Shown: piece by piece, positions 5,656 through 25,613 of the stretch
Position numbering within the stretch: the first letter of the stretch is position 1
Layout: each line of letters begins with the position of its first letter
Assembly: GCA_013426015.1 (NCBI GenBank)
Contig: CP058998.1
Location: 1,050,758-1,114,757 of the forward strand
Direction of reading: 5' to 3'
DNA length: 64,000 nt
From: Candidatus Fermentimicrarchaeum limneticum
Lineage (GTDB): Archaea > Micrarchaeota > Micrarchaeia > Burarchaeales > Fermentimicrarchaeaceae
Translations under genes and position numbers: made by a program
The notes under the pieces: model-generated
What the model was told of the DNA's origin: nothing
The model's input: the letters and a program-made list of their open reading frames with translations, nothing else
Database searches by the model: none

Positions 5656-5720
5656 AATTGAAAAATCGCGCTGTGATACCATTTTATTCTTATACATGCA
5701 AATATCCATGGTGATGCAGA

Positions 5721-6134: not shown

Positions 6135-6141
6135 ATTTTGG

Positions 6142-6396: not shown

Positions 6397-6403
6397 TGAT
6401 AGG

Positions 6404-8241: not shown

Positions 8242-8245
8242 TCAT

Positions 8246-8803: not shown

Positions 8804-8839
8804 GATAAATTTTTAAGCTACGACGCCTAAACGTATAAT

Positions 8840-9421: not shown

Positions 9422-9472
9422 TTGTGGTTCTCACTTCGCTTTTAGCGAAATACAGGCATCCAGAGGCGTATC

Positions 9473-11383
9473 ATGTTTTTTGACTTACTAGACGTAATCA
9501 AAAACGAATTCCCGCAGAGTACCCTCTCTATGCAGAGCCGGGATATCTTTCACATCGGAAGGATAAGAAACCTGAATGTATCCTACGCCCCTCTTTTTGG
9601 CAAAGTCTTCGTTTATGATGACGAATTCAGTAGAACCATGATGCATACCCCTGAAGATTTTGAGAGAAATGTCCTTCCCGACCTAGGTCGCTGTAATGTG
9701 CCCTCCCCCCCGGATGACAAGTTCGATACTTTCGGGATACTCCCGACTTCTGAATGCAATCTGAGATGCGTCTACTGCTATGCTAAAGGCGGTGAAACTA
9801 GAAAAAATTTGGATATTGGAACTTTAAAAAAAGCTGTGGAGTTCATGAACAATAATTCGAAAGAGCAGGTACTGGTATTCTTTCACGGTGGCGGGGAACC
9901 AACAACCAAATTCAAACTGCTAATTGAAATTAAGAGGTATGTAGACAAAAATTTGAAAGCTGAAAAGAGTTTCACACTGCAAACAAATGGTATTTTCTCG
10001 AATGAGGTGAGAAGCTGGGTATCAAAAAATATCGACCACGTCGCGCTCTCCTGCGATGGTCCTCCGCATATACAGGATTTCCAAAGACCTTTAAAAAACG
10101 GCGGGAGAAGCAGCCCTATTGTTGAGGAAAGCATCCGATATTTTGTTGAAAAATCAAAAAATATGACCATCGCAACAGTCATATCAAAATTTTCAAATGA
10201 ACGGCAAGAGGATATACTCGAATACTTGCACAAGCTCGGTGTAAAAAAAGTGAAATTCACTCCCCTTACTGAAAGAGGCAGATGTCTATGCGGTGCAACT
10301 GACTATTCCGCCAGACCCGACATGCTAAAATTTTTCACAAACAATCTTACAAGGAGCATCGAGTTGGCGGATATTTACGATATCAAGCTCCTATACCCCG
10401 GCTTAATTGATTCGTGCCGTGACGTCTCGTGCTTTGTAGCTGGGAGGTCGTTTATTTTGACACCAGACGGGTTTGTCAGCCCCTGTGTTTCCGTGCATTG
10501 CGGCGATTCAGATTTTAATGAGCTGCTCTTCGGCTATTTTGACAAGGAGAAGGGTGAAATAAAAATTGATAAGAAAAAATTGGATTTTCTGCGGAATAGA
10601 GTAGTGCAGAACATCCCAGCATGCAAGAATTGTTTTATGAAATGGAACTGCAGCGGCGGATGCGCAATCTCCGCCTGCATGATTTACGGAAAGGACATCT
10701 ACTCCCCACAAAGAGGACATTGCGACTGGATTAGAAAGCTAGGTGAAGGCGCCCTGCGCTATAAGGTCGAGAAATACCTTTTAAAGACAAAGCCTTTTCT
10801 GGAGGAAAGAAATGGCACAATAGAATACCGGGAGGTATTAGATGACTTTGAACCCAAAAAACCCCCAACCAAGAGAAAAGAAGATTTGGTACTACAGGTA
10901 GACGCAAACAAATCAAGTCTTGCTTTGACCTACGATAGAATTATAAAAACCAATCCACGGCTGAGTCTGATATCTTTCAGACTGCGTCCCAAAGATTTAA
11001 ATTTGGAAACAGGCAGAAGGATTGAAAAATTTTTGAGAACTCTGAAACTAAAACGCATCAATTTCATCGTGACAAGACCACTGCCGAGATGCCTATTCAA
11101 CCATGAGTACGCGAAGGCTGCCGAGGATTTTAGAATTCCGAAAAATTGTGAGGAATGCACCTGGCTTTTTGTGCTGAAAGACAGCAATTTCCACATCTGC
11201 AATACAGATATAAAAATACCTGAAGACAAAATAAGGAGCAGAAGGGAGGTATACGAATTTTTCAAAAAACAAAACAAGAGAATTTTTGATTCTCCATGCA
11301 GTGAATGCGTATACCGGATAAGAGGAAATTGCAATGGTTTGTGCCGAGGATACAGAAATAAAAATATTCATGCGGTGCGATAA
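9473..11383 (+). CDS. hxsC: Large radical SAM/SPASM-like maturase, HxsC-like
   Basis: It carries CNLRCVYCYA (Cx3Cx2C) and FFHGGGEPT. A SPASM-like segment CKNCFMKWNCSGGCA is followed by an extra Cys-rich C-terminal extension (CEECTWLF...CSECVYRIRGNCNGLCRGY). It is 636 aa. Its stop overlaps the start of the next radical-SAM gene (TAATG). Confidence 0.55.
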   Translation: MFFDLLDVIKNEFPQSTLSMQSRDIFHIGRIRNLNVSYAPLFGKVFVYDDEFSRTMMHTPEDFERNVLPDLGRCNVPSPPDDKFDTFGILPTSECNLRCVYCYAKGGETRKNLDIGTLKKAVEFMNNNSKEQVLVFFHGGGEPTTKFKLLIEIKRYVDKNLKAEKSFTLQTNGIFSNEVRSWVSKNIDHVALSCDGPPHIQDFQRPLKNGGRSSPIVEESIRYFVEKSKNMTIATVISKFSNERQEDILEYLHKLGVKKVKFTPLTERGRCLCGATDYSARPDMLKFFTNNLTRSIELADIYDIKLLYPGLIDSCRDVSCFVAGRSFILTPDGFVSPCVSVHCGDSDFNELLFGYFDKEKGEIKIDKKKLDFLRNRVVQNIPACKNCFMKWNCSGGCAISACMIYGKDIYSPQRGHCDWIRKLGEGALRYKVEKYLLKTKPFLEERNGTIEYREVLDDFEPKKPPTKRKEDLVLQVDANKSSLALTYDRIIKTNPRLSLISFRLRPKDLNLETGRRIEKFLRTLKLKRINFIVTRPLPRCLFNHEYAKAAEDFRIPKNCEECTWLFVLKDSNFHICNTDIKIPEDKIRSRREVYEFFKKQNKRIFDSPCSECVYRIRGNCNGLCRGYRNKNIHAVR

Positions 11384-12339
11384 TGGGGAGACGACTTGAT
11401 TTGAAGGTTGGTTTTTCCTGCAACAATAACTGTAGCTTCTGCGTTCAGGGCCGTAAAAAGAATCTGGGTGACAAAACTGCAGCGCAGATCAAAAAAGATC
11501 TGAAAGACACAATCGAAGAGGGCATAGAGGAGGTTGTATTTACCGGAGGCGAGCCAACAGTACGCAAGGATATACTCGAGCTTGTCTCATACGCCACTGA
11601 CTTGGGTTATAAAATAATTCAGATTCAAAGCAACGGCAGGATGTTTTTTTATAAGAAGTTCTGCGAGGACATCATAAGGGCAGGTGCGAATGAGTTCTCG
11701 CCAGCAATCCACGGCCACATACCGCAGCTGCACGATTACCTCACCCGCTCGCCAGGCAGCTTCGAGCAGACAGTGCAGGGGATAAGGAATCTCAAGGGGA
11801 TGAACCAGCACATAATAACAAACTCGGTTGTGACAAAACCCAACTATAGGCATCTCCCGGAGTTGGCAGAACTTCTTGTCCAACTTCAGGTCGACCAGTT
11901 CCAAATGGCGTTTGTGCATGCTGACGGCAACGCCTACCTTTATTTTGACCGGATAGTTCCAAGAAAATCACTCGCAGCCCCCTATATCAAGCGGGCTCTG
12001 CAGATAGGGATTGATGCAAAAATCCGAGTTATGGCAGAAGCAATCCCGTACTGTTTCATGAAGGGATATGAGCAATACGTGTCGGAAATTTACATTCCAT
12101 CCACAAAAATAATAGATTTTGAATTTACTGATCCGAATTTTGAATACACCCGAGCTTCGCAGGGCAAGTGCAAAGCACCAAAATGCAAGAGATGTAAATA
12201 TTACCTCATCTGCGAGGGACCTTGGAAAGAATATCCAGAAAGAAGAGGATGGGAAGAATTCGTGCCGATTCCAGGCAGAAAAATGAAGAGCAGAGACCAA
12301 CTATTCAAAACCCGCAGGAGTGATACTGATGTTTCCTAA
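11383..12339 (+). CDS. Radical SAM enzyme, paralog 1 of a five-member tandem family
   Basis: N-terminal VGFSCNNNCSFC (Cx3Cx2C), FTGGEPT and a C-terminal CKRCKYYLICEGPWKEY (CxxC-x5-C-x-G-x-W, twitch/SPASM-like). Its nucleotide sequence shares a 58-nt identical tract with paralog 4. Confidence 0.65.
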   Translation: MGRRLDLKVGFSCNNNCSFCVQGRKKNLGDKTAAQIKKDLKDTIEEGIEEVVFTGGEPTVRKDILELVSYATDLGYKIIQIQSNGRMFFYKKFCEDIIRAGANEFSPAIHGHIPQLHDYLTRSPGSFEQTVQGIRNLKGMNQHIITNSVVTKPNYRHLPELAELLVQLQVDQFQMAFVHADGNAYLYFDRIVPRKSLAAPYIKRALQIGIDAKIRVMAEAIPYCFMKGYEQYVSEIYIPSTKIIDFEFTDPNFEYTRASQGKCKAPKCKRCKYYLICEGPWKEYPERRGWEEFVPIPGRKMKSRDQLFKTRRSDTDVS

Positions 12340-13213
12340 CAAAGTTGATGTGCTGTGCGGTTACACCTGCAACAATAATTGCCTTTTCTGCTTCATCAAA
12401 GGTAGAAAGACCGCTGATGGGACCACTTCGCAGATAAAAAAAATCCTGAACAATCTAAGGGCAGAGGGGTTCAGCGAGGTTATTTTCAATGGAGGTGAAT
12501 CGACCATCCGGAGAGATTTCATAGAGCTAGTGGGGTACGCCAGCGAGCTCGGCTTCCCCAAAGTGAATGTAAGTTCAAATGGCAGGATGTTCTGCTACAA
12601 GGATTTCGCTAGGAAGGCTGCGGAGGCGGGTCTGACGAATGCCATAATATCAATGCACGGTTCAAATGCAAAAACCCACGATATGCTGACGAGAGTCCCC
12701 GGAAGTTTCAAACAGACAATGAAGGGAATGGATAATCTAATCGGAGTCGGGGTAAAAACAATGTCGAATACGACCATAGCAAAGCAGAACCATACTGAAC
12801 TGCCGCGGTTGGTAAAACTCTTATCAAACTTTGATTTGGTGTGGAGGGAATTTATTTTCGTGCATCCCGGAGGGGCTGCTTTGCAGAATTTTGAAAGTGT
12901 TGTGCCTACCCTAACAGAGATTGCGCCATCTCTGCGCAAAGCATTTGACCCAAAGCGAGGCTTTACGAATCTAGGCGTGGAATCTGTTCCGTACTGTTTC
13001 ATGAAGGGATGTGAAAAATTTGTCGTCACACAAAAGATGGAGGCCAGACTGGTGGGGATGGATTTCCAGATAGCCGACGTAAACAAGTCAAGGAGAGAGG
13101 AAGCAAAAATAAAATCGCCGGGGTGTTCCAGATGCAAGTACAACGACAAATGCGAAGGGGTCTGGAGAGCTTATGCAGAAAGATACGGTCTAGGAGAGCT
13201 TAGACCATGCTAA
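12320..13213 (+). CDS. Radical SAM enzyme, paralog 2
   Basis: CGYTCNNNCLFC, FNGGEST and C-terminal CSRCKYNDKCEGVWRAY. It overlaps the previous gene by 20 nt. Confidence 0.65.
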   Translation: MILMFPNKVDVLCGYTCNNNCLFCFIKGRKTADGTTSQIKKILNNLRAEGFSEVIFNGGESTIRRDFIELVGYASELGFPKVNVSSNGRMFCYKDFARKAAEAGLTNAIISMHGSNAKTHDMLTRVPGSFKQTMKGMDNLIGVGVKTMSNTTIAKQNHTELPRLVKLLSNFDLVWREFIFVHPGGAALQNFESVVPTLTEIAPSLRKAFDPKRGFTNLGVESVPYCFMKGCEKFVVTQKMEARLVGMDFQIADVNKSRREEAKIKSPGCSRCKYNDKCEGVWRAYAERYGLGELRPC

Positions 13214-13235
13214 CATGGTAAGATGACGTGGGATT

Positions 13236-14210
13236 ATGCCATCGAATCTAATACGACTGGGGAACAAATGTAATCAAAATTGCATATTCTGCACGGTAGC
13301 CCTAGATAACGAGAGGGAGTTGAGCAATGAAGAGGTGAAGAAAAAAATTGAGTTTTTGTCAGAGAAGGGAGCCGATATACTGACTTTTACGGGCGGGGAG
13401 CCAACAATACGTAAGGATCTGCCGGACTTGATAAGGTTCGCGAAAGGCAAATCCTTCAGGAGAATAGAGCTGCAGACAAACGGAGTTCTAATGTCTGACA
13501 AGAAATTAGCTTGTGAGATAGCCCGCGCAGGTGTTGATGAAGTGCTTGTATCGCTGCACTCCCATAGAAAAAGGATATCGGAAAGGCTCACGAACGTACC
13601 TGGCACGTTCGACAAAACCTTAAAAGGGATAGAAAATCTCTTGGAGCTTGACAAGAGAGTCTGTATCAGCCATGTGATAAACTCGCTCAATTATTCTGAT
13701 TTAACTAATTTTGTGAAGTTTGTCAAGAACAGATTCCCCTCACTATCCTCGTTCTACTTTGGATTTGTGAGGCCAAACGGCAACGCAAATTTCAACAGAT
13801 GGATTGTGCCAAAAATTTCGGACATAGACTTCCGCATATACGGCGTTTTCAGTTACTGCAGGGAACATAAGATACCTTTCTCTGTGGAGGGTATACCGCT
13901 TTGTTACATGCAAGGATACGAGACGCATTCTTCAGAAGTTCACAGGATACTCTCCGAACCAGTTTTCTATATGGGAAGTGGTGATACCCAATACGACGTC
14001 CATAAATTCGTAATAAAGAACTTCAGAGCGAAGGGAGAGCAGTGCGAGTTCTGCTTTGTAAAGGATATCTGCCCCGGTTTATGGAAGGAATACGCGGATA
14101 TATACGGGACAGAAGAGCTGTTCCCAGTTTTCATATCGAAAGAAGGCATAACAAAAGATGTCAAAGAAAGGTGGGTTAAATGGAAAAAGAGGCAGTCACA
14201 AAAGAGTTAA
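13236..14210 (+). CDS. Radical SAM enzyme, paralog 3
   Basis: LGNKCNQNCIFC, FTGGEPT and C-terminal CEFCFVKDICPGLWKEY. It shares a 33-nt identical tract (tttacgggcggggagccaacaatacgtaaggat) with paralog 4. Confidence 0.65.
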   Translation: MPSNLIRLGNKCNQNCIFCTVALDNERELSNEEVKKKIEFLSEKGADILTFTGGEPTIRKDLPDLIRFAKGKSFRRIELQTNGVLMSDKKLACEIARAGVDEVLVSLHSHRKRISERLTNVPGTFDKTLKGIENLLELDKRVCISHVINSLNYSDLTNFVKFVKNRFPSLSSFYFGFVRPNGNANFNRWIVPKISDIDFRIYGVFSYCREHKIPFSVEGIPLCYMQGYETHSSEVHRILSEPVFYMGSGDTQYDVHKFVIKNFRAKGEQCEFCFVKDICPGLWKEYADIYGTEELFPVFISKEGITKDVKERWVKWKKRQSQKS

Positions 14211-15172
14211 ACCTATTCCTAGGTTATACTTGCAATAATAATTGCTGGTTTTGTTCAGAAATGGCGAATAGGGAAAAACCGGGCAAGAGCACAGAAGACG
14301 TAAAAAGAGAGCTAGCTAACGCAAGAAAAAACAGGGTTCAGAGAATTACGTTTACGGGCGGGGAGCCAACAATACGTAAGGATATAGTTGAGATCGTTTC
14401 ATATGCGCATGAACTAGGCTTTGAGGAGATATTCATAATAACGAATGGCAGAATGCTTTTTTACAAGGAATTAGCAAGAAAACTATCAGATGCAGGCCTC
14501 ACCCACATACTTTTCTCTCTGCATGCGCCAGAAGCTAGAATACACGATTACCTCACCCGCTCGCCAGGCAGCTTCGAGCAGACAGTGCAGGGGATAAGGA
14601 ACGCCGTCGGGGTAGGGAACGCCGTCGGGGTAGGGAACATAATCGTGGAGAATAACACGGTCATAACGCGAAAGAACTACAAGTCTCTTCCGAAACTTGC
14701 AGAGCTGCTTATCAAGCTGGGCGTTGACTTCTACGAGTTTATCCTAGTGAACCCCATCACGATAAATTCCTATTTCAGAGGAAGATTTGAGGAGTTTGTC
14801 CCTAGAATCTCCGAGATTCACAAATACGTTCACAGAGCTCTCGACATAGGAAAGGAAAAGAATATCTGGTGCACAGCGGAGGGAATTCCGTTCTGTTACA
14901 TGCAAGGATATGAGAAAAACGCCACGGAATTGTATATGGCTCCTCAGAGGAGCATCCTCGGCCCTGGCGGCCGTTACGTTGCTGACGTAAACAAGTCAAG
15001 GAGAGAGTGCGGCAAGATAAAAGCAGAAACCTGCTCCCGGTGCAGATACTACCTGCTATGCGAGGGGATATGGGGGCACTACGCGGAGCATTACGGGATG
15101 GCGGAGTTCAAACCAGTTGCCGGAAGATATCTGAGAAGTTCAGATATAGCGCGAGGCGGACGGCATGCCTGA
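14180..15172 (+). CDS. Radical SAM enzyme, paralog 4
   Basis: LGYTCNNNCWFC, FTGGEPT and C-terminal CSRCRYYLLCEGIWGHY. It contains an in-frame 18-nt tandem duplication (NAVGVGNAVGVGN). It overlaps the previous gene by 31 nt. Confidence 0.65.
   Translation: MEKEAVTKELNLFLGYTCNNNCWFCSEMANREKPGKSTEDVKRELANARKNRVQRITFTGGEPTIRKDIVEIVSYAHELGFEEIFIITNGRMLFYKELARKLSDAGLTHILFSLHAPEARIHDYLTRSPGSFEQTVQGIRNAVGVGNAVGVGNIIVENNTVITRKNYKSLPKLAELLIKLGVDFYEFILVNPITINSYFRGRFEEFVPRISEIHKYVHRALDIGKEKNIWCTAEGIPFCYMQGYEKNATELYMAPQRSILGPGGRYVADVNKSRRECGKIKAETCSRCRYYLLCEGIWGHYAEHYGMAEFKPVAGRYLRSSDIARGGRHA
14600..14635 (+). repeat. In-frame 18-nt perfect tandem duplication inside radical-SAM paralog 4
   Basis: aacgccgtcggggtaggg is repeated twice, encoding NAVGVG-NAVGVG. 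Confidence 0.8.
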
Positions 15173-16289
15173 CGTCTCCATAGTGAAATGTCCTGATTAC
15201 TCAAAAGTGAAAGTAGCAGTAAAAAGATCATTGGACCTTTTGGGCGGAGCTAGAAAGTTTTTCAAAAAGGATGAGATGATACTGCTTAAACCCAATATAT
15301 CCGACCCTCTCCCTCCCGACAAGGCGAGCAATACCCATCCACTCCTTGTAAGGGCGGTGATTGAGGTTGCGCAGAGGGCAGGAGCCAAGGTTTGGGTAGG
15401 GGAGTGCTCTGCAGGGGGGTCCCCCGGGATAACGAAAAAATGCCTGGAGATATCGGGTATCGGAGATGTGTTGAGGGAAACAGGGGTTGAATTCAAGAAT
15501 TTCCAGGAAGAGGTCTTCGTCCCTCGCGACATACCCGGATTTAAAGTTTTGGAAAAAACGGATTTTGCCGGCTCCTTTTTCCAAGCGGACTCCATTGTGA
15601 ATTTGCCAAAGCTCAAAACGCACGGACTCACCTTCATGACTGGAGCGGTAAAAAACTGCTTCGGGTTCATAAACCCGCAGGAGAGGCAGTACCTGCACAG
15701 AAATTTCCCAGAAAGGGAGCGTTTCAGCCAAGGGCTGGTTGACGTCTACTCATTCATAAAACCAAGATTGACAATAATGGACGCCGTTGTCGGTATGGAG
15801 GGGGAGCAGGGTCCCTCGTTCGGTGACCCAAGGAGAATAGGGGCCGTCATAGCTGGCGGCGACGGAGTTGCAGTAGATGCAGTCGCAGCCGAGATAATAG
15901 GCTACAACCCGCTTGCGATACCTATGATAAGAAGCGCGGATGAACGTGGTGTTGGGAGTATCAGAGGGATACGCGTGGTTGGGAGCAGTATTGATGCGGT
16001 GAAAGTGAGAGATTTCAAAAAACACCCACTCTTCAGCAACAAATACCGGAAAATGCAGGGATTTGGAAGCTCGTTTGTCATGATGCCGGAGGTTGACACA
16101 AGCAAATGCACCAGATGCAGGACCTGTGCGGATAACTGCCCCGTAGGTGCTATATTGATGGATCCCTATCCGGTAATAAACAGAAAGAAGTGCATAATGT
16201 GTTACTGCTGTCATGAGCTATGCCCGTCCGGTGCGTGCAGGCTTGAGGTAAAATGGTTCGGAAAAAAAGATAAAAGAGGAGTGGAATGA
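15165..16289 (+). CDS. DUF362-domain protein with a C-terminal 2x[4Fe-4S] ferredoxin domain
   Basis: The C-terminus carries CTRCRTCADNCP and CIMCYCCHELCP (two CxxCxxCxxxCP motifs). The N-terminal ~300 aa show the DUF362-type fold signature (ILLKPN..., GECSAGGSPGIT). It overlaps the flanking radical-SAM genes by 8 and 4 nt. Confidence 0.55.
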   Translation: MPDVSIVKCPDYSKVKVAVKRSLDLLGGARKFFKKDEMILLKPNISDPLPPDKASNTHPLLVRAVIEVAQRAGAKVWVGECSAGGSPGITKKCLEISGIGDVLRETGVEFKNFQEEVFVPRDIPGFKVLEKTDFAGSFFQADSIVNLPKLKTHGLTFMTGAVKNCFGFINPQERQYLHRNFPERERFSQGLVDVYSFIKPRLTIMDAVVGMEGEQGPSFGDPRRIGAVIAGGDGVAVDAVAAEIIGYNPLAIPMIRSADERGVGSIRGIRVVGSSIDAVKVRDFKKHPLFSNKYRKMQGFGSSFVMMPEVDTSKCTRCRTCADNCPVGAILMDPYPVINRKKCIMCYCCHELCPSGACRLEVKWFGKKDKRGVE

Positions 16290-17182
16290 TGGTTAGCGAC
16301 ATAGCAGTCGGAGTAACATGCAATAACTGTTGCATAATGTGTACAAACATAATGCCCCCCCCAACAAGGTGGGACGCGAGCACTGAGGACATTGAAAGGA
16401 TGGTGCGCAGCTTTGATAAGAAAGAGCGCAAGATAGTGCTGACAGGCGGCGAACCCTCAATAAGAAGTGACTTCCTGCGCATACTCCGGTTCATAAAAAA
16501 GGAGAGGCCTGATTCAAGAACAATGGTTCTTACGAATGGAAGGATATTCTGTTATCCCGAATTCACCAAGAAATTCATCTCCACTGGTTGTGACTGGGTT
16601 GCAATCCCCCTGCACGCTCATAAAGCTGAGTTGCACGACATGATAACGAGGGCTCCTGGCAGCTTCGAGCAGACAGTGCAGGGGATAAGGAACCTGCTTG
16701 ATTACCAGGACGAAGTCGACCTAGACGTGAGAGTTGTAATCCACAGGTTGAACTACAAGCATTTGCCAGCCCTCGCCAAGTTCATCTCCAACGAATTCAA
16801 CGGCCTCCACCAAGTCGTGCTGTTCCCCATAGACATAATTGGGAATGCGAATATAAACAGGAAAGAGCTCCTGGTAAAAATAACTGAAGTCAAACCTTAT
16901 CTTGAAAGAGCACTCAACACGCTAGAAAAAAATGATTTTGATATCAGCCTATTCCACATCCCGTTCTGTGTTTTAGACAGAAAATACTGGAAGAATGTAG
17001 CCGGCAGGACGGTTGAGGATAGGAGGATAACCTTCGAACCATGCGGCGAGTGCATCATGCGGGAAAAATGCCCGGGAATCTGGAGGACGTATGCATTCAG
17101 AGTCGGCACTGCCGAGTTCAAACCCATCCGCCCAGCACCAAAAACAATATATACGAAGTCACCAAATCTAAATGTTAGATGA
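16286..17182 (+). CDS. Radical SAM enzyme, paralog 5
   Basis: VGVTCNNCCIMC (Cx3Cx2C), LTGGEPS and C-terminal CGECIMREKCPGIWRTY. It shares a 35-nt tract (ggcagcttcgagcagacagtgcaggggataaggaa, PGSFEQTVQGIRN) with paralogs 1 and 4. Confidence 0.65.
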   Translation: MMVSDIAVGVTCNNCCIMCTNIMPPPTRWDASTEDIERMVRSFDKKERKIVLTGGEPSIRSDFLRILRFIKKERPDSRTMVLTNGRIFCYPEFTKKFISTGCDWVAIPLHAHKAELHDMITRAPGSFEQTVQGIRNLLDYQDEVDLDVRVVIHRLNYKHLPALAKFISNEFNGLHQVVLFPIDIIGNANINRKELLVKITEVKPYLERALNTLEKNDFDISLFHIPFCVLDRKYWKNVAGRTVEDRRITFEPCGECIMREKCPGIWRTYAFRVGTAEFKPIRPAPKTIYTKSPNLNVR

Positions 17183-19308
17183 CCGTGCCGAGTGTTAAAA
17201 TATTGTCACTTTCCGTTTTTGTACTGCTTCTGTTACCCATGGCAAGGGCGCTTACAACAAATGCAACTGTAACAATAAAGAATCCTTCCGGACAGGCGGT
17301 GGTGAACAGTCAGCAGATGACCTGCACTGCGCTAGGCTCGGGAACGTTTTCCGGCTCCGCGTTTGACAGCCCTACTCTGTGCGGCTTTAACACAACTTCT
17401 GCCAATCTTATAAACCGCACCAATACGAGCTGCGCATACACATATACAAAGAATTACTCAGCAGAAGGTGCCTGGACTGCAAACGTTACATTCTACCACA
17501 CTGCATACGAGAATAGAGGAGTTAATATAGATACCACAAACGGAACTGTTGATACTCAGTCTCCACCAACGGGCCAGGCCACTTTGGACTGCACTGCAAA
17601 TACAACATGCGTGTCAGACCCACAGTGCAACAACACCCTGAACGAGTCAGTGAACATGACCATCTACGCGATAAACTGGGACACAACGCAGGCTGACTGT
17701 GTTGGTTACGGAAAGTTGTGGTATCCCGGTAAGACAAGCGGCTCAAATTACTACTGCTGCGGCGATGATGGAACCAGTGATGATTTTGCATACTGGAGCG
17801 GAACGACATGCATGTACTGCAATAATGGAGTCAACAGCAGCACAACCACAAAGTGTTCTGCCACTTCTGCGTACTGCACGGGGGGTGATAGCGCTACCTG
17901 TCAGAGTGGCGATGACAACTATTGCTGCTACAATGTTGGGTGCTCTTCAACTGGGGCGACGGGTTCTCAGACAAACATGGTTGGTGGCAATTGCACATGC
18001 ACAGATGACCTATGCTACTGGGGTTACTGTGACAATGCTTCTTGGGGTGGAGCGGGCTGCTACTACTCGGTTTCTTGTTCCTCCACTGGCTGGGTAGGCA
18101 ACCTACGCAGCCCTCCAAACGATCCTAGAAACCAGACAGTCTCACCCCAAATTGCAGAGCCTGAAACTACGCTGAATGTAACGGCGAATGTAAGCGACGA
18201 CACTCAGAATGCGCATATAATTGTCTACAATTCTTCAGTAACCACACCTGTCGGTTCCACCGCCATTTGTACTGGAAACGACGTGGGTTCGAATCAGAAT
18301 TCCTCGTGCACCTTCACGGCCTCGGCTGCAGGCTGCTCAGCTGGGAACTGTACGGTCAAAATAATAGCGAGTGAGGAGAACTCTGATGCATGCGGTCCAC
18401 CGAAGTATAGTTTCCATTTCGTTAATGTAAGCTTCACCTATAAGAACAGAAATGTCTCACCACCTACTCGCAACGCACCGGCAAGCGACCCGAATGTGCT
18501 TGTCGGCAACACCTTTGTGCTCAACTGCACTGCACTTACAGGAAATGCTTCCACTGGAATAAACATGTCCTTCCAGTTCAACTCAACAACAGCTGGTTGG
18601 GCGAATATAACCACGTCAGGTGGCTTGACCACAACTCAGACAAACCCAGCTGTGAATGTTCTGAATGGAACAGCATATGCAATCAATGTGACAGGCGTTA
18701 CACCTGGGACTTACTGGGTGCGCTGCCAGGCATTCAACTCAACCTACAGGGCAAACAGCACTGCTCAACAGGTGACAGTGACAACAATACCACCTACGAT
18801 AAATGTGAGCGCAGAGAGCTACCCGAACTGCGGTGCTGTTTTCTACAGAGTGAGCTTCTATGACGTTAATTCAAAACTCATTGACTCCTCTTTCTCCCTC
18901 AAGGTGATAGACCCAAGCGTGATAACTGTTCTGACTCAGGCTGCCCTCTACCCGAATAACGGAACGGGCGTGTACCTCGGCAGCTATCTGCTCAATACAA
19001 GCTCTCCGCTTGGAACGTGGCTGCTAAAGGTGACCGAAAGCTCTGGGGTGACCACGGGGAAGAATTTCTATGTAGTGACTACGTGTGGAGATGGAACTTG
19101 CACAGGAGGGGAGAACTGCGAGAACTGCGCAGCAGATTGTACCTGCTCAGGTTTCTGCCAGGAGGGCACCTGTTACACCTGCTCTGGCTCACACTCCGGC
19201 ACTTGTCCGAGCGAATCAAAGTGCTGCAATTGCGGTATGTGTAACCTCGGTTATTTGTGTATTCCAGAGGAAATGCAATGTGACGGTTTTACATGCGGAT
19301 GTCTCTAA
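17179..19308 (+). CDS. Secreted, extremely Cys/Thr/Ser/Gly/Asn-rich surface protein with a C-terminal Cys-knot-like module
   Basis: It has an N-terminal signal peptide (SLSVFVLLLLPMARALT). More than 60 Cys fall in CCGDDGTSDD, CMYCNNG, CTCTDDLCYWGYC and similar contexts. The C-terminal CGDGTCTGGENCENCAADCTC...CNCGMCNLGYLC module is also found in the downstream pilin. There are many N-x-S/T sequons. Confidence 0.5.
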   Translation: MTVPSVKILSLSVFVLLLLPMARALTTNATVTIKNPSGQAVVNSQQMTCTALGSGTFSGSAFDSPTLCGFNTTSANLINRTNTSCAYTYTKNYSAEGAWTANVTFYHTAYENRGVNIDTTNGTVDTQSPPTGQATLDCTANTTCVSDPQCNNTLNESVNMTIYAINWDTTQADCVGYGKLWYPGKTSGSNYYCCGDDGTSDDFAYWSGTTCMYCNNGVNSSTTTKCSATSAYCTGGDSATCQSGDDNYCCYNVGCSSTGATGSQTNMVGGNCTCTDDLCYWGYCDNASWGGAGCYYSVSCSSTGWVGNLRSPPNDPRNQTVSPQIAEPETTLNVTANVSDDTQNAHIIVYNSSVTTPVGSTAICTGNDVGSNQNSSCTFTASAAGCSAGNCTVKIIASEENSDACGPPKYSFHFVNVSFTYKNRNVSPPTRNAPASDPNVLVGNTFVLNCTALTGNASTGINMSFQFNSTTAGWANITTSGGLTTTQTNPAVNVLNGTAYAINVTGVTPGTYWVRCQAFNSTYRANSTAQQVTVTTIPPTINVSAESYPNCGAVFYRVSFYDVNSKLIDSSFSLKVIDPSVITVLTQAALYPNNGTGVYLGSYLLNTSSPLGTWLLKVTESSGVTTGKNFYVVTTCGDGTCTGGENCENCAADCTCSGFCQEGTCYTCSGSHSGTCPSESKCCNCGMCNLGYLCIPEEMQCDGFTCGCL

Positions 19309-19349
19309 TCATCATTCTGAAAGACTAGGAAAAGGAATCAAAGCCGACA

Positions 19350-19366
19350 CAACCTATATTTTAATA
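19350..19366 (+). promoter_or_regulatory. Conserved AT-rich promoter-like element upstream of the pilin gene 19388
   Basis: caacctatattttaata lies ~25 nt upstream of the ATG. A near-identical copy sits upstream of 20121. Confidence 0.35.
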
Positions 19367-19387
19367 TCCTGCCGATAAAATTGTCTT

Positions 19388-20041
19388 ATGCGCAGAGGGC
19401 AGATAAGCTTTGACTTCCTCGTCATAGTAGTTTTTGCCTTCATAATATTCCTCGAGATGTTCCAGCTGTATGCGCTCGAGAGCAGGTCAAGCAGCATAAT
19501 AGAAGGAAAGGCGAGTGCCCTGAGTGTGTGCAGCAAGGTTGCGAGAACAATAAACGAGGTTCTCAAGGCAAACGAAACCAGCGCGGTTGTGACGATACCC
19601 GAGACTTTGGACACTGGCGATACTTACTATCTCAGCATAAAAGCCGCTGGGAGGAGGGTTGATGTCTTCTGGCCGGTTTCAGCACAGAATAGAAGCGTCA
19701 CAGTGCCCATACTGACGAGTAATGTCACTGAGCGGAACATATCAAAATCTCTGGGCTCTGGCGAGACGACAATCAACATCACCAATCGAAATGGAACAGT
19801 GGGCATTTTTATCCTTGGAACATGCGACAACACTGTTTGCGAAGCTGGGGAGAACTGCGAGAACTGCGTTGCAGACTGCACCTGCTATTGTGGGGATGGA
19901 CTGTGCACCCATGCAGCAGGAGAGGACTGCAATACATGCGTGGCTGACTGCGACTGTGAGGCGCCAGCTTCAATCTGCTGTCCTGAATACACAGAGGCGC
20001 ACGGTCTTTGTGTTCTTCAGAGCCAGATGTGTAATCCATAG
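19388..20041 (+). CDS. Type IV pilin-like protein (class III signal peptide) with a C-terminal Cys-rich module
   Basis: The N-terminus is MRRG|QISFDFLVIVVFAFIIFL. The C-terminal CEAGENCENCVADCTCYCGDGLCTHAAGEDCNTCVADCDCE shares a 22-nt identical tract (ggggagaactgcgagaactgcg) with 17179..19308. Confidence 0.55.
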   Translation: MRRGQISFDFLVIVVFAFIIFLEMFQLYALESRSSSIIEGKASALSVCSKVARTINEVLKANETSAVVTIPETLDTGDTYYLSIKAAGRRVDVFWPVSAQNRSVTVPILTSNVTERNISKSLGSGETTINITNRNGTVGIFILGTCDNTVCEAGENCENCVADCTCYCGDGLCTHAAGEDCNTCVADCDCEAPASICCPEYTEAHGLCVLQSQMCNP

Positions 20042-20120: not shown

Positions 20121-22160
20121 ATGAGAAAAGGCCAGCTGTTCAGCCAAGACATAATATTCGCGATAGTCCTGGTATTGTTCACGTTCTCGCTATGGCTTAT
20201 ACTGAGGGACAGGGTGCTGCACGTAATATCCATAACTGAGGACAGGAGGGAGATTGACGAAGCAGCATCAGAAGCCATCGGCCAGCTTCTTGAAACCTCT
20301 GGAAGGCCGACAAACTGGAATAGGCTCTCGGCAATAGACGAAAATACAGTGGAAAGCGTAGGTCTTGCAAGTGAAAGAAACGTTCTGGACAGCGACAAGG
20401 TTGACAAATTCGTAGGCCTAGCGAAAAATCAGATAAGCAGTTTTGTTCTTCTTGCAGCCCTGTGGCATTTCGACGAGGGAATCGACACCACTGCCGCAGA
20501 CAGCTCCGGAAACGGGAATACTGCCGTGTTCAACGGCACTTCACTAACCACATTGGTTCCAAACAGCGTAAACAAGGCGTATTATGCTTCCTCCGCAGTA
20601 TCGGATTCACCAAGCCAGGCAACAACGGAATTCTGGTCGGGAAAATACACCAATGTCCAAAGCTCGGATGCCGCCTATGCATTTGATAGTGCATCCGTTT
20701 CGCAATATGAAGACTGCAAGACACCGTCGCTATCCGGCTCCTGCGCATGCGCAAACGCAGGGATATGCGAGGAGGACACTGTAGAAGGCTGCACCACTGG
20801 CACCATAACGTGCACCTCCACCGGATGCAACCAGAGAGGGAATGCAACGAACTCCAGCAATACTTGCACTGCTTATCCATCTGAGAGCGGATGCAGGGAC
20901 CCTGATCCATGGGACTGCCCTGAGAGCGGAGTAATATGCACTAGTGGAGCCTGCACACCATCCTGCCAGAATCTAGGTTCCTGTTACTATACATGCAACG
21001 CCGGCTACTACAACTGCAATAACGACATAACGACTGACGGCTGCGAAAGCAACTCAGCCTGCTATAATTTCGCCATTCAGAGATACACCTTCAACCTCAG
21101 CTCCTATACTTGGAGTGAGGTGGGCAGCCTGCAATTCTGTTTTGAGGGTTACAACTCGTCCACCGGCGGATTGGCAACAGCAGAACTGATGTGGTATAAC
21201 GTCTCCGGAAGCTCCTGGGTCAGCTCCACCCAAATTTCATCAACAGAGGGCACATGGTGCCTCTCATTCAGCGGTGATAATCTAACTTCGCTTTACAATG
21301 AAACCGGAACATGGGTCCAGTTCGCCGTAAGGGGCAACCAGTCGAAGACAGGGCATGCATTAACACTGGCCGTGGACTATGTATACCTAAACATGACCCG
21401 ATCCCACGCAGTTGAATCGTTATGGACAACGGGAAAATCCGGCAACGGGATCTTTCTTGATGGCGCCGCCCATATGGATGTGGCCGATTCCTCCACCTTG
21501 GACATAACGAACCAGCTTACTATCGAGGCCTGGGTGAAGTCGAGTACTCTCTCCCCGTCCTACCAGACAGTACTCCAGAAAGGCGATTCTTCCAATGAGA
21601 ACTACGGATTGTATCTGAAAGGGAGCGAGGTTTACTTCGAGTGGCTAAACAGCGGGCTCAAATCGAACGAAACAGCGTCAGCAAACCTTCAGGCAAACCG
21701 CTGGCAGCACGTGGCTCTGGTTTTCAATTACTCGGGAGGTTGGGGCAAGCTTTACGTAGACGGCTATGAGAAAAAGAACTTTTCAGTGTCCGCTGACCTG
21801 CTTGCAAACAACGGCAAGCTCCTGATTGGACAAAACAGCTCCGCAGGCAATTATTTCAACGGAACGCTGGACGAGGTTGCAATCTACTCTAGGGCAAAGT
21901 CGGCGGATGAGATAAGGGACGACGCAGGCGCCGGATACACTACAGTAAAGAGGCTTCTGGGTCTGGAGAGGGAAGGATACACCTTCAATTTCACAATCGC
22001 AGATATGGGCGGGAATGTGCTTTACAGCGTCAATGCCTCCCCGCAGGCTGCTCCAAGCGGCGCAGGCTTCGCCGCGGTTAACACCACTGCCTTTATTGAA
22101 AGATTTGCATTATTGAATGACTCCTTGGTCAGGGTCACACTGGGTGTATGGATTGAATAG
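20121..22160 (+). CDS. Large pilin-like adhesin (class III signal peptide) with a LamG/concanavalin-like lectin domain
   Basis: The N-terminus is MRKG|QLFSQDIIFAIVLVLF. LamG_3-type motifs are present: WHFDEGIDTTAADSSGNGN...WQHVALVFNYSGGWGKLYVDGY...NGTLDEVAIYSRAKSADEIRDD. It also has a central Cys-rich segment. Confidence 0.6.
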   Translation: MRKGQLFSQDIIFAIVLVLFTFSLWLILRDRVLHVISITEDRREIDEAASEAIGQLLETSGRPTNWNRLSAIDENTVESVGLASERNVLDSDKVDKFVGLAKNQISSFVLLAALWHFDEGIDTTAADSSGNGNTAVFNGTSLTTLVPNSVNKAYYASSAVSDSPSQATTEFWSGKYTNVQSSDAAYAFDSASVSQYEDCKTPSLSGSCACANAGICEEDTVEGCTTGTITCTSTGCNQRGNATNSSNTCTAYPSESGCRDPDPWDCPESGVICTSGACTPSCQNLGSCYYTCNAGYYNCNNDITTDGCESNSACYNFAIQRYTFNLSSYTWSEVGSLQFCFEGYNSSTGGLATAELMWYNVSGSSWVSSTQISSTEGTWCLSFSGDNLTSLYNETGTWVQFAVRGNQSKTGHALTLAVDYVYLNMTRSHAVESLWTTGKSGNGIFLDGAAHMDVADSSTLDITNQLTIEAWVKSSTLSPSYQTVLQKGDSSNENYGLYLKGSEVYFEWLNSGLKSNETASANLQANRWQHVALVFNYSGGWGKLYVDGYEKKNFSVSADLLANNGKLLIGQNSSAGNYFNGTLDEVAIYSRAKSADEIRDDAGAGYTTVKRLLGLEREGYTFNFTIADMGGNVLYSVNASPQAAPSGAGFAAVNTTAFIERFALLNDSLVRVTLGVWIE

Positions 22161-22569
22161 GGCATTCATCTTCACATTGGATGCGATTCTCGCGGTGATA
22201 CTGTGCTCCATGCTCTTCTTCTCAACCTACTACCTTCTGGCGAAATTCCAATATTCTGTAGTGAGGGAAACCGCCCTCGTCAACATCTGCTCGGATGTCC
22301 TGACCTCGCTGGAGAAGAACCACACGCTGCAGAATTCCATAACCTACTCCCGCACGTCGGACATACGCAACGTCCTGAACAACCTACCTTCAAACACATG
22401 CTCGGATCTCGTGATATACTCCTATGACAACAAACCGCTGCTCATAACCGCAAAGACGGGCTGCAACTGCACGGCAAGCCGCTCGTTGGTAGTTAGGAGC
22501 TTCGTTATTCCTGAGAGCAATGGAACGCTTTCAACATATATGGCTAAGATGGAGGCGTGCTACACATGA
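22117..22569 (+). CDS. Small type IV pilin-like protein (class III signal peptide)
   Basis: ...GLNRA|FIFTLDAILAVILCSMLFF has the archaeal prepilin pattern. It overlaps the previous gene by 44 nt. It is 150 aa. Confidence 0.4.
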   Translation: MTPWSGSHWVYGLNRAFIFTLDAILAVILCSMLFFSTYYLLAKFQYSVVRETALVNICSDVLTSLEKNHTLQNSITYSRTSDIRNVLNNLPSNTCSDLVIYSYDNKPLLITAKTGCNCTASRSLVVRSFVIPESNGTLSTYMAKMEACYT

Positions 22570-25500
22570 GGAGGGCATTCCTTTTCTCAGTGATATTTGT
22601 GCTGCTTTTCACAGTCTTCCTGCTGCTCTCAGCTTTCTACCTAAAAATCCTGCAGAGCAGCGAGATAGATATCGCGCAGGCAGGCAACATAACCAAGGTC
22701 GTTTACACTAGAGACGACATAGCAACTGACCTCTTGGACTACCTGCAACTTGCCGTGAATATTGAGAGCAACTCCACCAATACCATCCTGAACATATCTG
22801 ATGTGCTCACATCCCCGTATAGCAATCCAAACTCATCGCTTGATTCCTACAAGAGCATCATAAACGGCACTTATTCAAACCAGACCAATCTCCTTGACCC
22901 AAGCACAAACCTCTCCGTCATCTCGCTGGACACCACCTCATTCGAGTCCTCGCCGTCACTCAGCTTCCTCAACTCCAACTCCTCGCTCAACCTCCGCTAT
23001 TCTTACAACAATCTCAGCAAGAACGAGCTGATAATAAACGGCTCGAGCCTTACGAGAAACTACTCGGTGACAGCAAGACTGAACAACACATGCATGAACA
23101 ATAACTGCACCAACGCCACATTCGCCGGAGGACCGCCGACCGTTGACAACTCAACGCGCGGCATGTGGCATTTTGACGAGGGCACTGGCACAACAACTGC
23201 TGACAGCTCAGGAAAAGGAGGTACCGGAACTATAAACGGAACTACAAACTGGATTGGAAGTAGATTCGGAAATGCTTTGAACTTCAGCACAGACTACACT
23301 GACTTTGTTAGCATTCCAGATTCAAATGATTTGGATTTAAACGCAAGTTTCACAATTGAATTTTGGTTTAGATTCCGTTACATTGGTGGAATTTATAGAC
23401 CAATACTTGGCAAGGCGACTGGAAGCATGGCAGTAAGTCAAAATTATGTAGCATTTTTGAATATCGTACCACAACTCGTATTTTTGATAGCGAATGGAGC
23501 AAGTGCTCAAACTATAAACTCAAGCGTATTATCAGCGAATACATGGTACCACGGAGCATTTACTGCTGATGGCAGCACAATAAAAATATACCTTAATGGC
23601 GTTCTGCAAGATTCTGCAACGCAGACTCTAACGCCATTGGTTAACAATCAACCCTTATATATAGGAACCGCAAACTATTCTCCAAGTGGATTCAAAGGGG
23701 CCATAGACGAGGTTGCAATCTACTCCCGTGCAAAGTCCGCGGATGAGATATACGCCGATGCAAATCTATTCCACTGGGACTGGGGCCCGATTGCAATAAA
23801 CAGCAATATCTCCGCAGCATGGCATTTCGATGAGGGAAGTGGAAACATCTCTTACGACAGCTCCGGAAATGGAAACAGCTGCAGCTTCAACGGCACAACA
23901 GCACCACAACTCCTCCCAGACAGCACCCATAAGGCATATCTTATCTCCTCTACAACAACCGACTCCCCCAACCAGGCAACAACGGAATTCAGCTCTGCCC
24001 AGTATAACACAATAAACACTTCTGACGATCTTTATACAACCTCAACCGCACAGGAAAGCATAACACAAAGCTGCAATTCGCCGACATTAGGTGGTTGCGA
24101 GGGCAACCCTCCTTCATATGACTGCGATATAGATGATTGCTCACCAGTTACCTGTACGTCCCCCGCCTCATGGTGCAATAATCTAGCCAATTCAGTTTGG
24201 ACTAGCACCTGTGCAAAAACAACTGCATCGTGTGTATGTAGATACAATAAAATAGGTTTCTTTTACTGCCTGCCAGGTGGCTGTAGTAAAACTGGCTTAT
24301 GCAGCTATACATGCAACTCTGGCTATTACGATTCAAACGGGCTGGACTCGGATGGCTGTGAGACCACTACGCCTGCTTATATCCACACATTCCAGAGATA
24401 CACCTTCAACCTCTCCGCCTACAACTGGAATGACGTAACCGAACTGAAATTCTGCTGGGAGGGAAAATACAATGTATCTGGAACTGGCGGAAGCCCACTC
24501 AATTCCTCGGAACTATACTGGTATAATGTAAGTTCTGCAACTTGGACTACATGGCAAACATTACCTTACAATTCAGAGAACACCTATTGTGTGAATTTCA
24601 GCAATGTAAACCTCACCGATGTTTATAATTCAACAGGCACATGGGTCCAGTTCGCCGTAAGGGGCAACCAGTCGAAGACAGGGCATACCTTAACAATATA
24701 CGCGGATTACGCTTACCTCAACGTGACACACACCCTTGTCTCATCTTGGACTGCTGGAAAATTCAACTGGGGGCTGGGTTTGGATGGGGTTGCGACGTAT
24801 GCTGAGGCAGAGGACTCCTCAAGCTTGGATATAACAACCCAGCTAACAATTGAGGCATGGATTAAACCCTATCCCACTTATGATCCATCTTGCTCAGGTA
24901 TCTGCCAGCTGCCGATAGTGGTAAAGGGGTCGAATGCTCCGCTTTATAACTATTATTTTTCGGTCTACAACACTTCTGGACCTCTTTATCTGTCTTTTAC
25001 TTATACTAATTCTGAGGGGAGTGCGTTTGCATTTCGAAGTTCTGATGGGTCGATACAAACAGGGGTTTGGCAGCATGTAGCGGTAGTTTTTGATTACTCA
25101 GTGAAGTCTCTAACCTTTTATATCAATGGAGTTGCAGCGCCAGGTGATTCCAGCTCCACTACCTTTGATCTTGGCGTAAATAACCTTCCGGTGACCATAG
25201 GAGGGAACAATGATGGCACACCCAGCTTCAACGGAACGCTGGACGAGGTTGCAATCTACTCCCGCGCAAAATCAGCGGATGAGATATACGCGGACGCAAA
25301 CCCCGTTTACATATCGCTTGATGTGAGAGATGCGCTGAACAGCTCAGTAACCGTAAGAGGCGCAAGTGCTGGGTACGTTAATCCTGGCGGAAACAACACC
25401 TTCTACCTTAAGACGAACAACAACGGGATGCTTAACATGACTGCAGGCGGCTACTCGGGGCTGTATTCGCTCAGGATGCATGCAAACAACACAAGGGCGA

Positions 25501-25613
25501 GCCTGCTCATCAAAACAGTGCAAGAAGGCGTCTCAAGCATCCAGGCAGTTCTGCCAGTCCAGCTGCGACTATACCAGCAGACATTCAGCAATCTGATAAT
25601 AGCTGAAAAATAG
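22557..25613 (+). CDS. Very large pilin-like adhesin (class III signal peptide) with three LamG-like domains; paralog of 20121..22160
   Basis: The N-terminus is MLHMRRA|FLFSVIFVLLFTVFLLL. There are three LDEVAIYSRAKSADEIYADAN LamG_3 terminal motifs and repeated WHFDEG...DSSG(K/N)G starts. It shares 48-nt and ~29-nt identical tracts with 20121..22160. Confidence 0.6.
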   Translation: MLHMRRAFLFSVIFVLLFTVFLLLSAFYLKILQSSEIDIAQAGNITKVVYTRDDIATDLLDYLQLAVNIESNSTNTILNISDVLTSPYSNPNSSLDSYKSIINGTYSNQTNLLDPSTNLSVISLDTTSFESSPSLSFLNSNSSLNLRYSYNNLSKNELIINGSSLTRNYSVTARLNNTCMNNNCTNATFAGGPPTVDNSTRGMWHFDEGTGTTTADSSGKGGTGTINGTTNWIGSRFGNALNFSTDYTDFVSIPDSNDLDLNASFTIEFWFRFRYIGGIYRPILGKATGSMAVSQNYVAFLNIVPQLVFLIANGASAQTINSSVLSANTWYHGAFTADGSTIKIYLNGVLQDSATQTLTPLVNNQPLYIGTANYSPSGFKGAIDEVAIYSRAKSADEIYADANLFHWDWGPIAINSNISAAWHFDEGSGNISYDSSGNGNSCSFNGTTAPQLLPDSTHKAYLISSTTTDSPNQATTEFSSAQYNTINTSDDLYTTSTAQESITQSCNSPTLGGCEGNPPSYDCDIDDCSPVTCTSPASWCNNLANSVWTSTCAKTTASCVCRYNKIGFFYCLPGGCSKTGLCSYTCNSGYYDSNGLDSDGCETTTPAYIHTFQRYTFNLSAYNWNDVTELKFCWEGKYNVSGTGGSPLNSSELYWYNVSSATWTTWQTLPYNSENTYCVNFSNVNLTDVYNSTGTWVQFAVRGNQSKTGHTLTIYADYAYLNVTHTLVSSWTAGKFNWGLGLDGVATYAEAEDSSSLDITTQLTIEAWIKPYPTYDPSCSGICQLPIVVKGSNAPLYNYYFSVYNTSGPLYLSFTYTNSEGSAFAFRSSDGSIQTGVWQHVAVVFDYSVKSLTFYINGVAAPGDSSSTTFDLGVNNLPVTIGGNNDGTPSFNGTLDEVAIYSRAKSADEIYADANPVYISLDVRDALNSSVTVRGASAGYVNPGGNNTFYLKTNNNGMLNMTAGGYSGLYSLRMHANNTRASLLIKTVQEGVSSIQAVLPVQLRLYQQTFSNLIIAEK

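Follow-up and report, generated by a model that had tools for sequence, protein, structure and literature searches.

The window analyzed here, a stretch of 64,000 nucleotides (nt) from Candidatus Fermentimicrarchaeum limneticum contig CP058998.1, encodes at 17179..19308 on the forward strand a Cys-rich protein of 709 residues, termed p709, whose gene lies between a series of radical S-adenosylmethionine (rSAM) genes and the gene for a small pilin of 217 residues (p217). An earlier reading made from the letters alone (the sequence-only reading) had taken p709 and the pilin as the most plausible substrates of these rSAM/SPASM enzymes. The analysis instead indicates that p709 is probably a Sec-exported, heavily N-glycosylated, multidomain surface protein of a Micrarchaeota (DPANN) type IV pilus locus, with the rSAM genes forming a separate His-Xaa-Ser (Hxs) cassette. 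Since the Cys repeat that they share is a common one and the rSAM genes belong to that separate system, p709 and the neighbouring pilin are most likely ordinary pilus-associated surface proteins, and p709 would probably serve as an adhesin or decoration of the pilus in surface or host attachment. Related loci and proteins are given below by number (L001 and P0002, for example).

The p709 protein and its pilus locus

The features of p709 were as follows.

17179..19308, + strand: p709 (Sv326_1207), open reading frame (ORF) of 709 residues; predicted Sec-signal, N-glycosylation-rich, Cys-rich secreted multidomain protein
17179..17250, + strand: Sec-type signal peptide, residues 1-24, ending ...PMARA/L (slash, cleavage site); read by eye, kept in P0002-P0004
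17251..17901, + strand: N-terminal domain, residues 25-241, common to P0007 and P0008
18109..18438, + strand: beta-sandwich (immunoglobulin (Ig)-like) domain, residues 311-420, from the AlphaFold2 model
18772..19074, + strand: last Ig/MG2-like domain, residues 532-632, ending ...GKNFYV; weak Pfam MG2 match
19147..19305, + strand: variable Cys-rich C-terminal tail with 12 further Cys, from orthologue comparison

The p709 sequence is identical (100%) to protein Sv326_1207 of Ca. Fermentimicrarchaeum limneticum Sv326, and a search of 5.8e9 proteins returned only eight homologues. Its N terminus, MTVPSVKILSLSVFVLLLLPMARA/L, is of the Sec type as judged by eye, is conserved in the orthologues and is not a class III signal, in agreement with the signal-peptide protein described in the sequence-only reading. 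The high content of Thr, Ser, Asn and Gly reported there was also recovered (14.1, 10.6, 9.4 and 9.2%, respectively), while the number of Cys residues, put at more than 60, was found to be 49 (6.9%). The protein contains 34 NxS/T sequons, compared with 15.8 +/- 3.2 in composition-matched shuffles, an enrichment of ~2.1-fold that was reached in 0/5000 shuffles.

Residues 311-420 form the sole long continuous confident stretch of the p709 AlphaFold2 model; this segment is all beta, with a predicted local distance difference test score (pLDDT) of 74-87 by 10-residue block, falling to ~50 at residues 401-410. The model, which was built on an alignment of eight sequences, was dropped as a query for fold searching because its mean pLDDT was 41. 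The N-terminal domain ties p709 to the pilus, as it shares 47-52% identity with P0007 and P0008, two more distant homologues that are located in pilin operons without rSAM genes, and in P0008 a p709-type N-terminal domain is fused to the central domain of the pilin-like protein p1018 (54% identity). The last Ig-like domain (residues 532-632) is 29% identical to the pilin-like MG2 protein encoded at 1250..3442, and 51-58% identical to proteins encoded directly upstream of the pilin in L008, L010, L011 and L012. The C-terminal tail varies between orthologues in length and content, and is missing in P0005.

The pilus locus surrounding p709 comprised the following genes.

19388..20041, + strand: p217, ORF of 217 residues, small type IV pilin with class III signal and C-terminal Cys tail
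20121..22160, + strand: pilin-like gene, 679 residues, N terminus resembling a class III signal, LamG domain (Laminin_G_3 match)
22117..22569, + strand: pilin-like gene, 150 residues, N terminus resembling a class III signal
22557..25613, + strand: pilin-like p1018, 1018 residues, class III-like N terminus, two LamG domains (Laminin_G_3 matches)
25614..26618 and 26843..27700, - strand: TadC/T2SSF pilus assembly genes (Pfam)
27789..29552, - strand: T2SSE ATPase for pilus assembly (Pfam)
416..1210, + strand: KaiC-like ATPase (Pfam), upstream part of the pilus locus
1250..3442, + strand: pilin-like MG2 protein (Pfam), class III signal MRKAQAAIELTII; orthologue in L008
3490..4554, + strand: pilin-like protein, class III signal MRRKGQGATELLVL; orthologue in L008

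The upstream part of the locus spans 416..4554 (+ strand). The p217 protein begins MRRG/QISFDFLV, a class III signal that leads into a hydrophobic N-terminal helix (MRRG/QISFDFLVIVVFAFIIFL), and this arrangement is conserved in 32 orthologues, most of which are 143 residues long and are without the Cys tail. The AlphaFold2 model of p217 has a helix at residues 3-59 (block means of 83-94 over residues 11-60, in blocks of 10) and a beta head at residues 65-143 (pLDDT ~90), followed by a tail at residues 145-217 that scores below 50. With TadC and ATPase genes alongside, the identification of the gene downstream of p709 as a class III signal pilin was upheld. A pilin linked to TadC and the T2SSE ATPase was also found in L001, L002, L008, L010 and L012. 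The window therefore resembles archaeal type IV pilus loci in the class III N terminus and helix/beta-head model of p217, and in its TadC, ATPase, KaiC-like ATPase and several LamG pilin-like proteins; it differs from them in the optional Cys-repeat tail of p217, which contains 17 Cys in total, and in the 709-residue, predicted Sec-exported partner that bears the same tail.

Some further features of the pilus locus were recorded. A block of 85 nt encoding ...LDEVAIYSRAKSADEI... occurs three times (21855..21939, 23691..23775 and 25227..25311), with copies 69-82% identical, at the ends of LamG domains in the two large pilin-like proteins. The window also contains two genes of the IS605 OrfB/TnpB type that encode Cas12f-like TNB domains (29603..30766 and 42369..43415, both - strand), the first of which directly adjoins the pilus ATPase gene. 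Compared with L008, the segment 29603..37478, which carries this TnpB gene and several surface-protein genes, looks to be extra DNA between the ATPase and tRNase Z.

Cysteine modules and concerted C-terminal tails

The shared Cys modules and the associated DNA repeat were located as follows.

19084..19146, + strand: p709 Cys module, residues 636-656, CGDGTCTGGENCENCAADCTC; six-Cys variant of a widespread repeat
19823..19957, + strand: two tandem Cys modules of pilin p217, residues 146-166 and 168-190, from the sequence
19098..19147, + strand: DNA repeat copy 1, 84% identical over 50 nt to 19837..19886; holds the exact 22-mer 19108..19129
19837..19886, + strand: DNA repeat copy 2, partner of 19098..19147

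The p709 module CGDGTCTGGENCENCAADCTC reappears in p217 as CDNTVCEAGENCENCVADCTC (residues 146-166), as the sequence-only reading had seen, and p217 carries a further copy that it had missed, CGDGLCTHAAGEDCNTCVADCDC (residues 168-190). All three modules are of the six-Cys form. The reported 22-nt identity between 19108..19129 and 19847..19868 is exact and extends on neither side, and the heptapeptide GENCENC, common to both genes, is encoded by seven identical codons (P ~0.007 under window codon usage, the heptapeptide being given). A recent duplication was rejected as the origin of the 22-nt identity, as identity in the window drops at once on both flanks. A similarity between p709 and p217 extending beyond the module (BLAST, 26% over 213 columns) was also rejected, the non-module part of the alignment being gappy and weak.

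Comparison with related genomes accounted for the 22-mer. The number of modules in p709 orthologues was four (P0002), three (P0004), two (P0003 and P0006) or none (P0005). At their 3' ends, the p709-like gene and the pilin gene of L015 share 92.5% identity across 133 nt. For the p709 orthologue and the pilin of L005 the corresponding values are 98% across 104 nt, a stretch that takes in non-coding flank, and 94% across 51 nt. Altogether, the 3' Cys cassettes within a genome are 84-98% identical (L005, 10300..11340; L015, 9230..10420; L002, 12150..13240); orthologous tails from genomes further apart, such as L015 versus either the window or L005, share less (72-77%). Within genomes, the p709 and pilin tails undergo concerted evolution, which explains the 22-mer in the window, and the two adjacent genes carry a like Cys cassette because their 3' ends recombine; the clear evidence of gene conversion comes from sister genomes only. 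The C-terminal repeat of p709, probably disulfide-bonded, would be one that is exchanged with the adjacent pilin.

The C-terminal tails are also freely gained, lost and truncated. In L005, for example, the pilin tail has been cut by a TGG to TGA change and a deletion of ~144 nt. Tails are present in both genes in the window, L002, L005, L012 and L015, and in neither gene in L001, L008 and L010, a co-occurrence that covers eight loci. The concerted behaviour of the tails may hint at a functional link between those of p709 and those of the pilin, but the genomes are relatives of one another and independent events are few.

These data bear on a different placement of p709, as a general cell-surface or S-layer-type glycoprotein whose Cys cassette would be a neutral by-product of recombination and have no functional link to the pilin. 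Its Sec rather than class III signal, together with the lack of an anchor or a pilin N terminus, suits such a protein; the tails can be dispensed with and in some genomes, such as L005, are in decay; and the Ig-like domains of p709 form a shuffled mosaic that is found also in other surface proteins of the window, such as that encoded at 31025..33001. Against it, a large Sec protein directly upstream of the small pilin is conserved even where the Hxs cassette is missing (L008), the N-domain homologues lie exclusively in pilin operons, one of them fused to a domain of the pilin-like proteins, and the tails occur in both genes or in neither across the eight loci. This placement is considered unlikely.

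A bolder proposal, and a rather doubtful one, is that gene conversion keeps the tails alike because they interact. An anchorless p709 would then dock on the pilus tail-to-tail, possibly through a disulfide, and the Hxs cassette would cooperate with the pilus, either by guarding it or through a lineage-specific extra rSAM enzyme acting on p709. Pili commonly serve as receptors for archaeal viruses.

Distribution and cysteine pattern of the repeat

The repeat is ~22 residues long and reads CGDGxCxxGExCxxCxxDC, or more fully C-G-D/N-G-x-C-x2-3-G-E-x-C-x2-C-x2-D-C-x1-2-C. It consists of a four-Cys core with an optional fifth-and-sixth Cys pair, and its acidic positions D3, E10 and D18 are conserved as strongly as the cysteines. 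When p709, p217 and pure module arrays were scanned with the Pfam and NCBIfam models, no family proved to cover the module, and a module profile of 46 positions, built from the window and its orthologues, found chance-level matches only, and no relative, among PDB sequences. A literature search on CGDG-type cysteine-rich repeats found nothing relevant. The same profile, when run against a library of 1.84e9 proteins, identified 3,316 representative proteins (E<=1e-3), of which 995 remained at E<=1e-10, often with long arrays and sometimes also with beta-helix, trypsin, FG-GAP, DUF4215, PLD or exosortase-sorted XDD4 domains. The modules of p709 and the pilin are copies of this very common extracellular mini-repeat, which surface proteins of both bacteria and archaea carry.

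A scan with a narrow module pattern, using one genome per species, gave 36 loci. Besides Micrarchaeota the loci came from many Myxococcota and from Planctomycetales, Acidobacteriota, Gammaproteobacteria, Acidimicrobiales, Aenigmatarchaeota and Nanoarchaeota, with up to 69 modules per ORF. No Pfam or NCBIfam match over the repeat was seen in the module proteins scanned (P0041-P0190, loci L016-L049). Neighbouring rSAM genes were sought with a hidden Markov model (HMM) made from the seven rSAM enzymes of the window, which picks out those rSAM genes that had been called in the Micrarchaeota loci; a phmmer search using these enzymes as queries additionally finds B12-rSAM genes. In 31/34 loci outside Micrarchaeota there was no rSAM gene within 10 kb of the module, the exceptions being L023, L028 and L041, and in 2/34 a SPASM rSAM gene lay 1.3-7 kb from the module protein. 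The co-occurrence of module and rSAM genes in other genomes, which the sequence-only reading had proposed to check, is therefore not a general one. That reading had added that its substrate hypothesis would lose support if the module proved widespread without rSAM linkage and was predicted to be a simple disulfide-stabilized EGF/TNFR-like domain. This has largely come about: the module is widespread, 31/34 loci show no rSAM linkage, and the Cys covariation described below fits plain disulfides, the tails themselves being modelled at pLDDT values below 50.

The pattern of the cysteines was informative. In a sample of 1,827 modules from 149 proteins, in which the repeats of one protein are not independent so that the P value is inflated in favour of the association, the third (GE-x-C) and sixth (DC-x1-2-C) Cys were both present in 694 modules and both absent in 1,040, and were discordant in 93 (odds ratio ~390). 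Four-Cys and six-Cys forms are mixed inside single arrays. As judged from these sequences, the covariation fits what is expected for a third, optional disulfide on a four-Cys core, and does not fit what Cys-to-carbon crosslinks require. The simplest interpretation of the module is a knot tied by two or three disulfides, perhaps with some help from the three conserved acidic residues, and the fallback offered in the sequence-only reading, of simply disulfide-knotted adhesive tips, is the one that the evidence favours.

The Cys modules might otherwise be metal-binding (Zn, Fe or Cu) or redox-active, thiol-exchange elements in place of structural disulfide knots. The high Cys density with CxxC spacings and the conserved D3, E10 and D18 are compatible with such a role, as is a host that is probably an anaerobe. 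The free interconversion of four- and six-Cys variants within one array suits disulfides over a fixed four-ligand site, however, and the repeat is abundant in secreted proteins of aerobic Myxococcota, which makes a metal or redox function highly improbable.

Known extracellular repeats offered two comparisons. The Myxococcus cysteine-rich repeat (DUF4215 / TIGR02232) is likewise short and secreted, starts CGDG...GE.CD and co-occurs with the module, for example in P0050; it differs in being longer and in ending ...DDGN...DGC, and neither p709, p217 nor the module arrays match its model. EGF-like, LDL-receptor class A and TNFR-type modules share with the window module an even number of Cys, tandem arrays, an extracellular location and conserved acidic residues. 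Since no sequence relationship was detectable and no confident model of the window module was obtained, this likeness is by analogy only.

The His-Xaa-Ser cassette and its bearing on p709

The rSAM genes upstream of p709 form a unit of their own, within which the expected substrate is also encoded.

4567..17182, + strand: archaeal His-Xaa-Ser cassette inside the pilus locus, from family matches; missing at this position in L008
7810..8241, + strand: HxsA-like repeat protein, ...HSSHSSHSSHASHTSHASHTSHSVHSS..., expected rSAM substrate, from sequence and weak HxsA3 and HxsA4 matches

In addition to the HxsA-like protein, the cassette encodes an A24-like peptidase, HxsD and an HxsD-like protein, HxsB, an M50B-like protein, a Cys-rich transmembrane (TM) protein, an rSAM/SPASM enzyme of 636 residues, four HxsC4-like rSAM enzymes, a DUF362-ferredoxin and HxsC, giving seven rSAM genes in total. 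HxsB (6404..7837) was assigned by a match to NCBIfam TIGR03978 of 378.4 bits, above the cut-off of 370. The best match of 16286..17182 was HxsC (TIGR03977), at 209 bits against a cut-off of 268, and its orthologues are called HxsC by JGI; for the four rSAM paralogues of 297-330 residues the best NCBIfam match was HxsC4. HxsD and the HxsD-like protein (5721..6134 and 6007..6396) fell below cut-off (TIGR03976, 45.1 against 50; HxsD_rel, 39.8 against 41), and the HxsD orthologue in L051, a more distant archaeon, carries Pfam PF27806 HxsD. The protein encoded at 7810..8241 has eight HxS triplets, where an HxsA calls for at least three, scores below cut-off with the HxsA3 and HxsA4 HMMs, and shares its leader and HxS repeats with L051 and L005. 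PADLOC returned for the cassette a generic rSAM likeness to viperins and nothing more.

Two details of the cassette genes were also recorded. The listed ORF 7810..8241 starts well upstream of the leader SLPSLSKTVTSFLLEEEGKISKESLL that is conserved in L051 and L005, and overlaps both HxsB (end 7837) and the following ORF (start 8159); the true HxsA-like start is probably internal to it. Directly upstream of the rSAM/SPASM gene (9473..11383, + strand) lies a gene (8840..9421, + strand) for a small protein that contains Cys and has a TM segment at its N terminus. This pairing with an rSAM/SPASM gene encoding 586-636 residues is constant across L001, L005 and the window; the cassette of L051 has at its end a 116-residue TM protein rich in Cys. 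The small TM protein could be a second cassette substrate.

The bacterial HxS-repeat effector HxsA, an experimentally shown rSAM substrate, is matured by HxsB, HxsC and HxsD with a change of +8 Da on the SHRSS motif, and the HXS system prevents phage DNA from entering the cell (Li et al., Nat Commun 2026, PMC13128918). The systems described there are bacterial four-gene ones, archaea not being mentioned, and their rSAM enzymes mature HxsA rather than a neighbouring Cys-rich protein (PMC13128918). The window cascade likewise has features of the His-Xaa-Ser system (TIGR03976-03979), with HxsB above cut-off, a probable HxsC, HxsD-like proteins and an HxS-repeat protein. It is expanded relative to the bacterial system by its seven rSAM enzymes, DUF362-ferredoxin, A24-like peptidase, M50B-like protein and Cys-rich TM protein; the window HxsA-like protein gave no peptidoglycan-binding domain match, and most components score under the family cut-offs. 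The rSAM genes upstream of p709 make up a separate Hxs unit, complete with an A24-like peptidase and an HxS-repeat substrate (HxsA) that belong to it, and are for this reason regarded as separate from p709 and the pilin.

Pilus locus and cassette dissociate both ways in related loci. L008 has a syntenic pilus locus (KaiC, two pilin-like genes, a Sec protein of 1051 residues, pilin, LamG protein, TadC, ATPase, tRNase Z and ABC transporter) with no rSAM gene, and its 1051-residue Sec protein has the last Ig-like domain of p709. Because this syntenic locus is without the cassette, 4567..17182 is read as extra DNA within the pilus locus and p709 as belonging to the pilus side. Conversely, L051 has a cassette (3097..13281) with an HxsA of 81 residues (...HSHSHISHTSHGSHSSHGSHSS), rSAM genes, and proteins related to those of the window (A24 peptidase, 31% identity over the full length; HxsD, 39%; HxsB, 45%; DUF362, 43%), and has no relative of p709, the pilins or TadC. 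Neither p709 nor the pilin is thus a component of the His-Xaa-Ser system, and the A24-like peptidase, shared with a locus that has no pilus genes, travels with the cassette and not with the pilus. L001 retains the full rSAM cascade (six rSAM genes), yet its 22 kb, read in every frame, contain no Cys module.

In six loci (the window, L001, L002, L005, L012 and L015) rSAM genes are followed by p709. The order in L001, L002, L005 and L012 is rSAM cascade, DUF362, HxsC, p709 orthologue and pilins, in some cases with intervening genes; an extra B12-rSAM gene stands ahead of the p709 orthologue in L001 and L002, and in L015 the rSAM genes are upstream of the module-bearing genes. L012 (Micrarchaeota Sv174, 3094..10654) showed some peculiarities: its p709 relative has 539 residues and internal repeats of ~288 nt; five unrelated genes, including a PMT_2 glycosyltransferase and LarC-, LarE- and LarB-like genes, separate it from the pilin; and the last Ig domain is present a second time, along with a four-Cys module, in a 151-residue ORF that directly precedes the pilin.

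The proposal that the Cys modules of p709 and the pilin are rSAM/SPASM substrates, with thioether or related crosslinks installed before export, draws on this gene order, on the 4-nt overlap (ATGA) between the p709 start and the stop of the last rSAM gene, which was confirmed, on the two outside loci with a nearby SPASM rSAM gene, on the 636-residue rSAM/SPASM enzyme, which is specific to the lineage where the cassette adjoins the pilus, and on a generic resemblance of two SPASM-type cassette enzymes to PapB and SCIFF maturases. It is barely credible, given that the resemblance is far under the cut-offs (103 against 340; 93 against 425) and is seen for HxsB itself, that the cassette encodes a cognate HxsA, that L001 keeps its rSAM genes without a module and L008 and L051 separate pilus from cassette, that 31/34 module loci outside Micrarchaeota have no rSAM gene nearby, that the correlated gain and loss of the third and sixth Cys fits Cys-Cys pairing, and that p709 is a 709-residue Sec preprotein unlike known RiPP (ribosomally synthesized and post-translationally modified peptide) precursors. 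SCIFF, sactipeptide and ranthipeptide precursors are also Cys-rich sequences near rSAM/SPASM genes. They are short cytoplasmic leader-core peptides, strictly tied to their maturase, whereas the Cys sequence of the window is a tail on large secreted proteins that is widespread without rSAM genes and dispensable where these persist. A giant secreted protein and a pilin crosslinked by rSAM enzymes would, if true, have represented a novel kind of protein maturation, but the evidence speaks against it.

Several points nevertheless weigh against reading p709 as a disulfide-stabilized pilus protein independent of the cassette. The HxsC-p709 ATGA overlap is kept in L005, and given this and the position of p709 after the last rSAM gene in five related genomes, p709 is likely to be co-transcribed with the cassette in this lineage. 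No anchor is visible in p709, and its pilus role is deduced from gene context and one domain fusion. The pilin p217 gave no match to Pfam pilin models and no significant pilin match in Foldseek searches of the PDB. The Cys tails of both p709 and p217 have pLDDT values below 50 in their AlphaFold2 models, which offer no module structure, and in a host that is probably an anaerobe extracellular disulfides are less certain. We nonetheless favour p709 as a surface protein of the pilus locus, in which, in this lineage, the Hxs cassette lies between the pilin-like genes and p709.

The window accordingly draws attention to an extracellular Cys repeat which, though very common, is represented in none of Pfam, NCBIfam and the PDB, and provides an example of C-terminal cassettes in concerted evolution between a pilin gene and its neighbour. 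It also contains an archaeal form, with added genes, of the His-Xaa-Ser antiphage system, of which earlier descriptions were confined to bacteria. For the Micrarchaeota (DPANN), it sets out in concrete terms the layout of a type IV pilus locus together with a putative secreted glycoprotein partner, which is probably relevant to host attachment.

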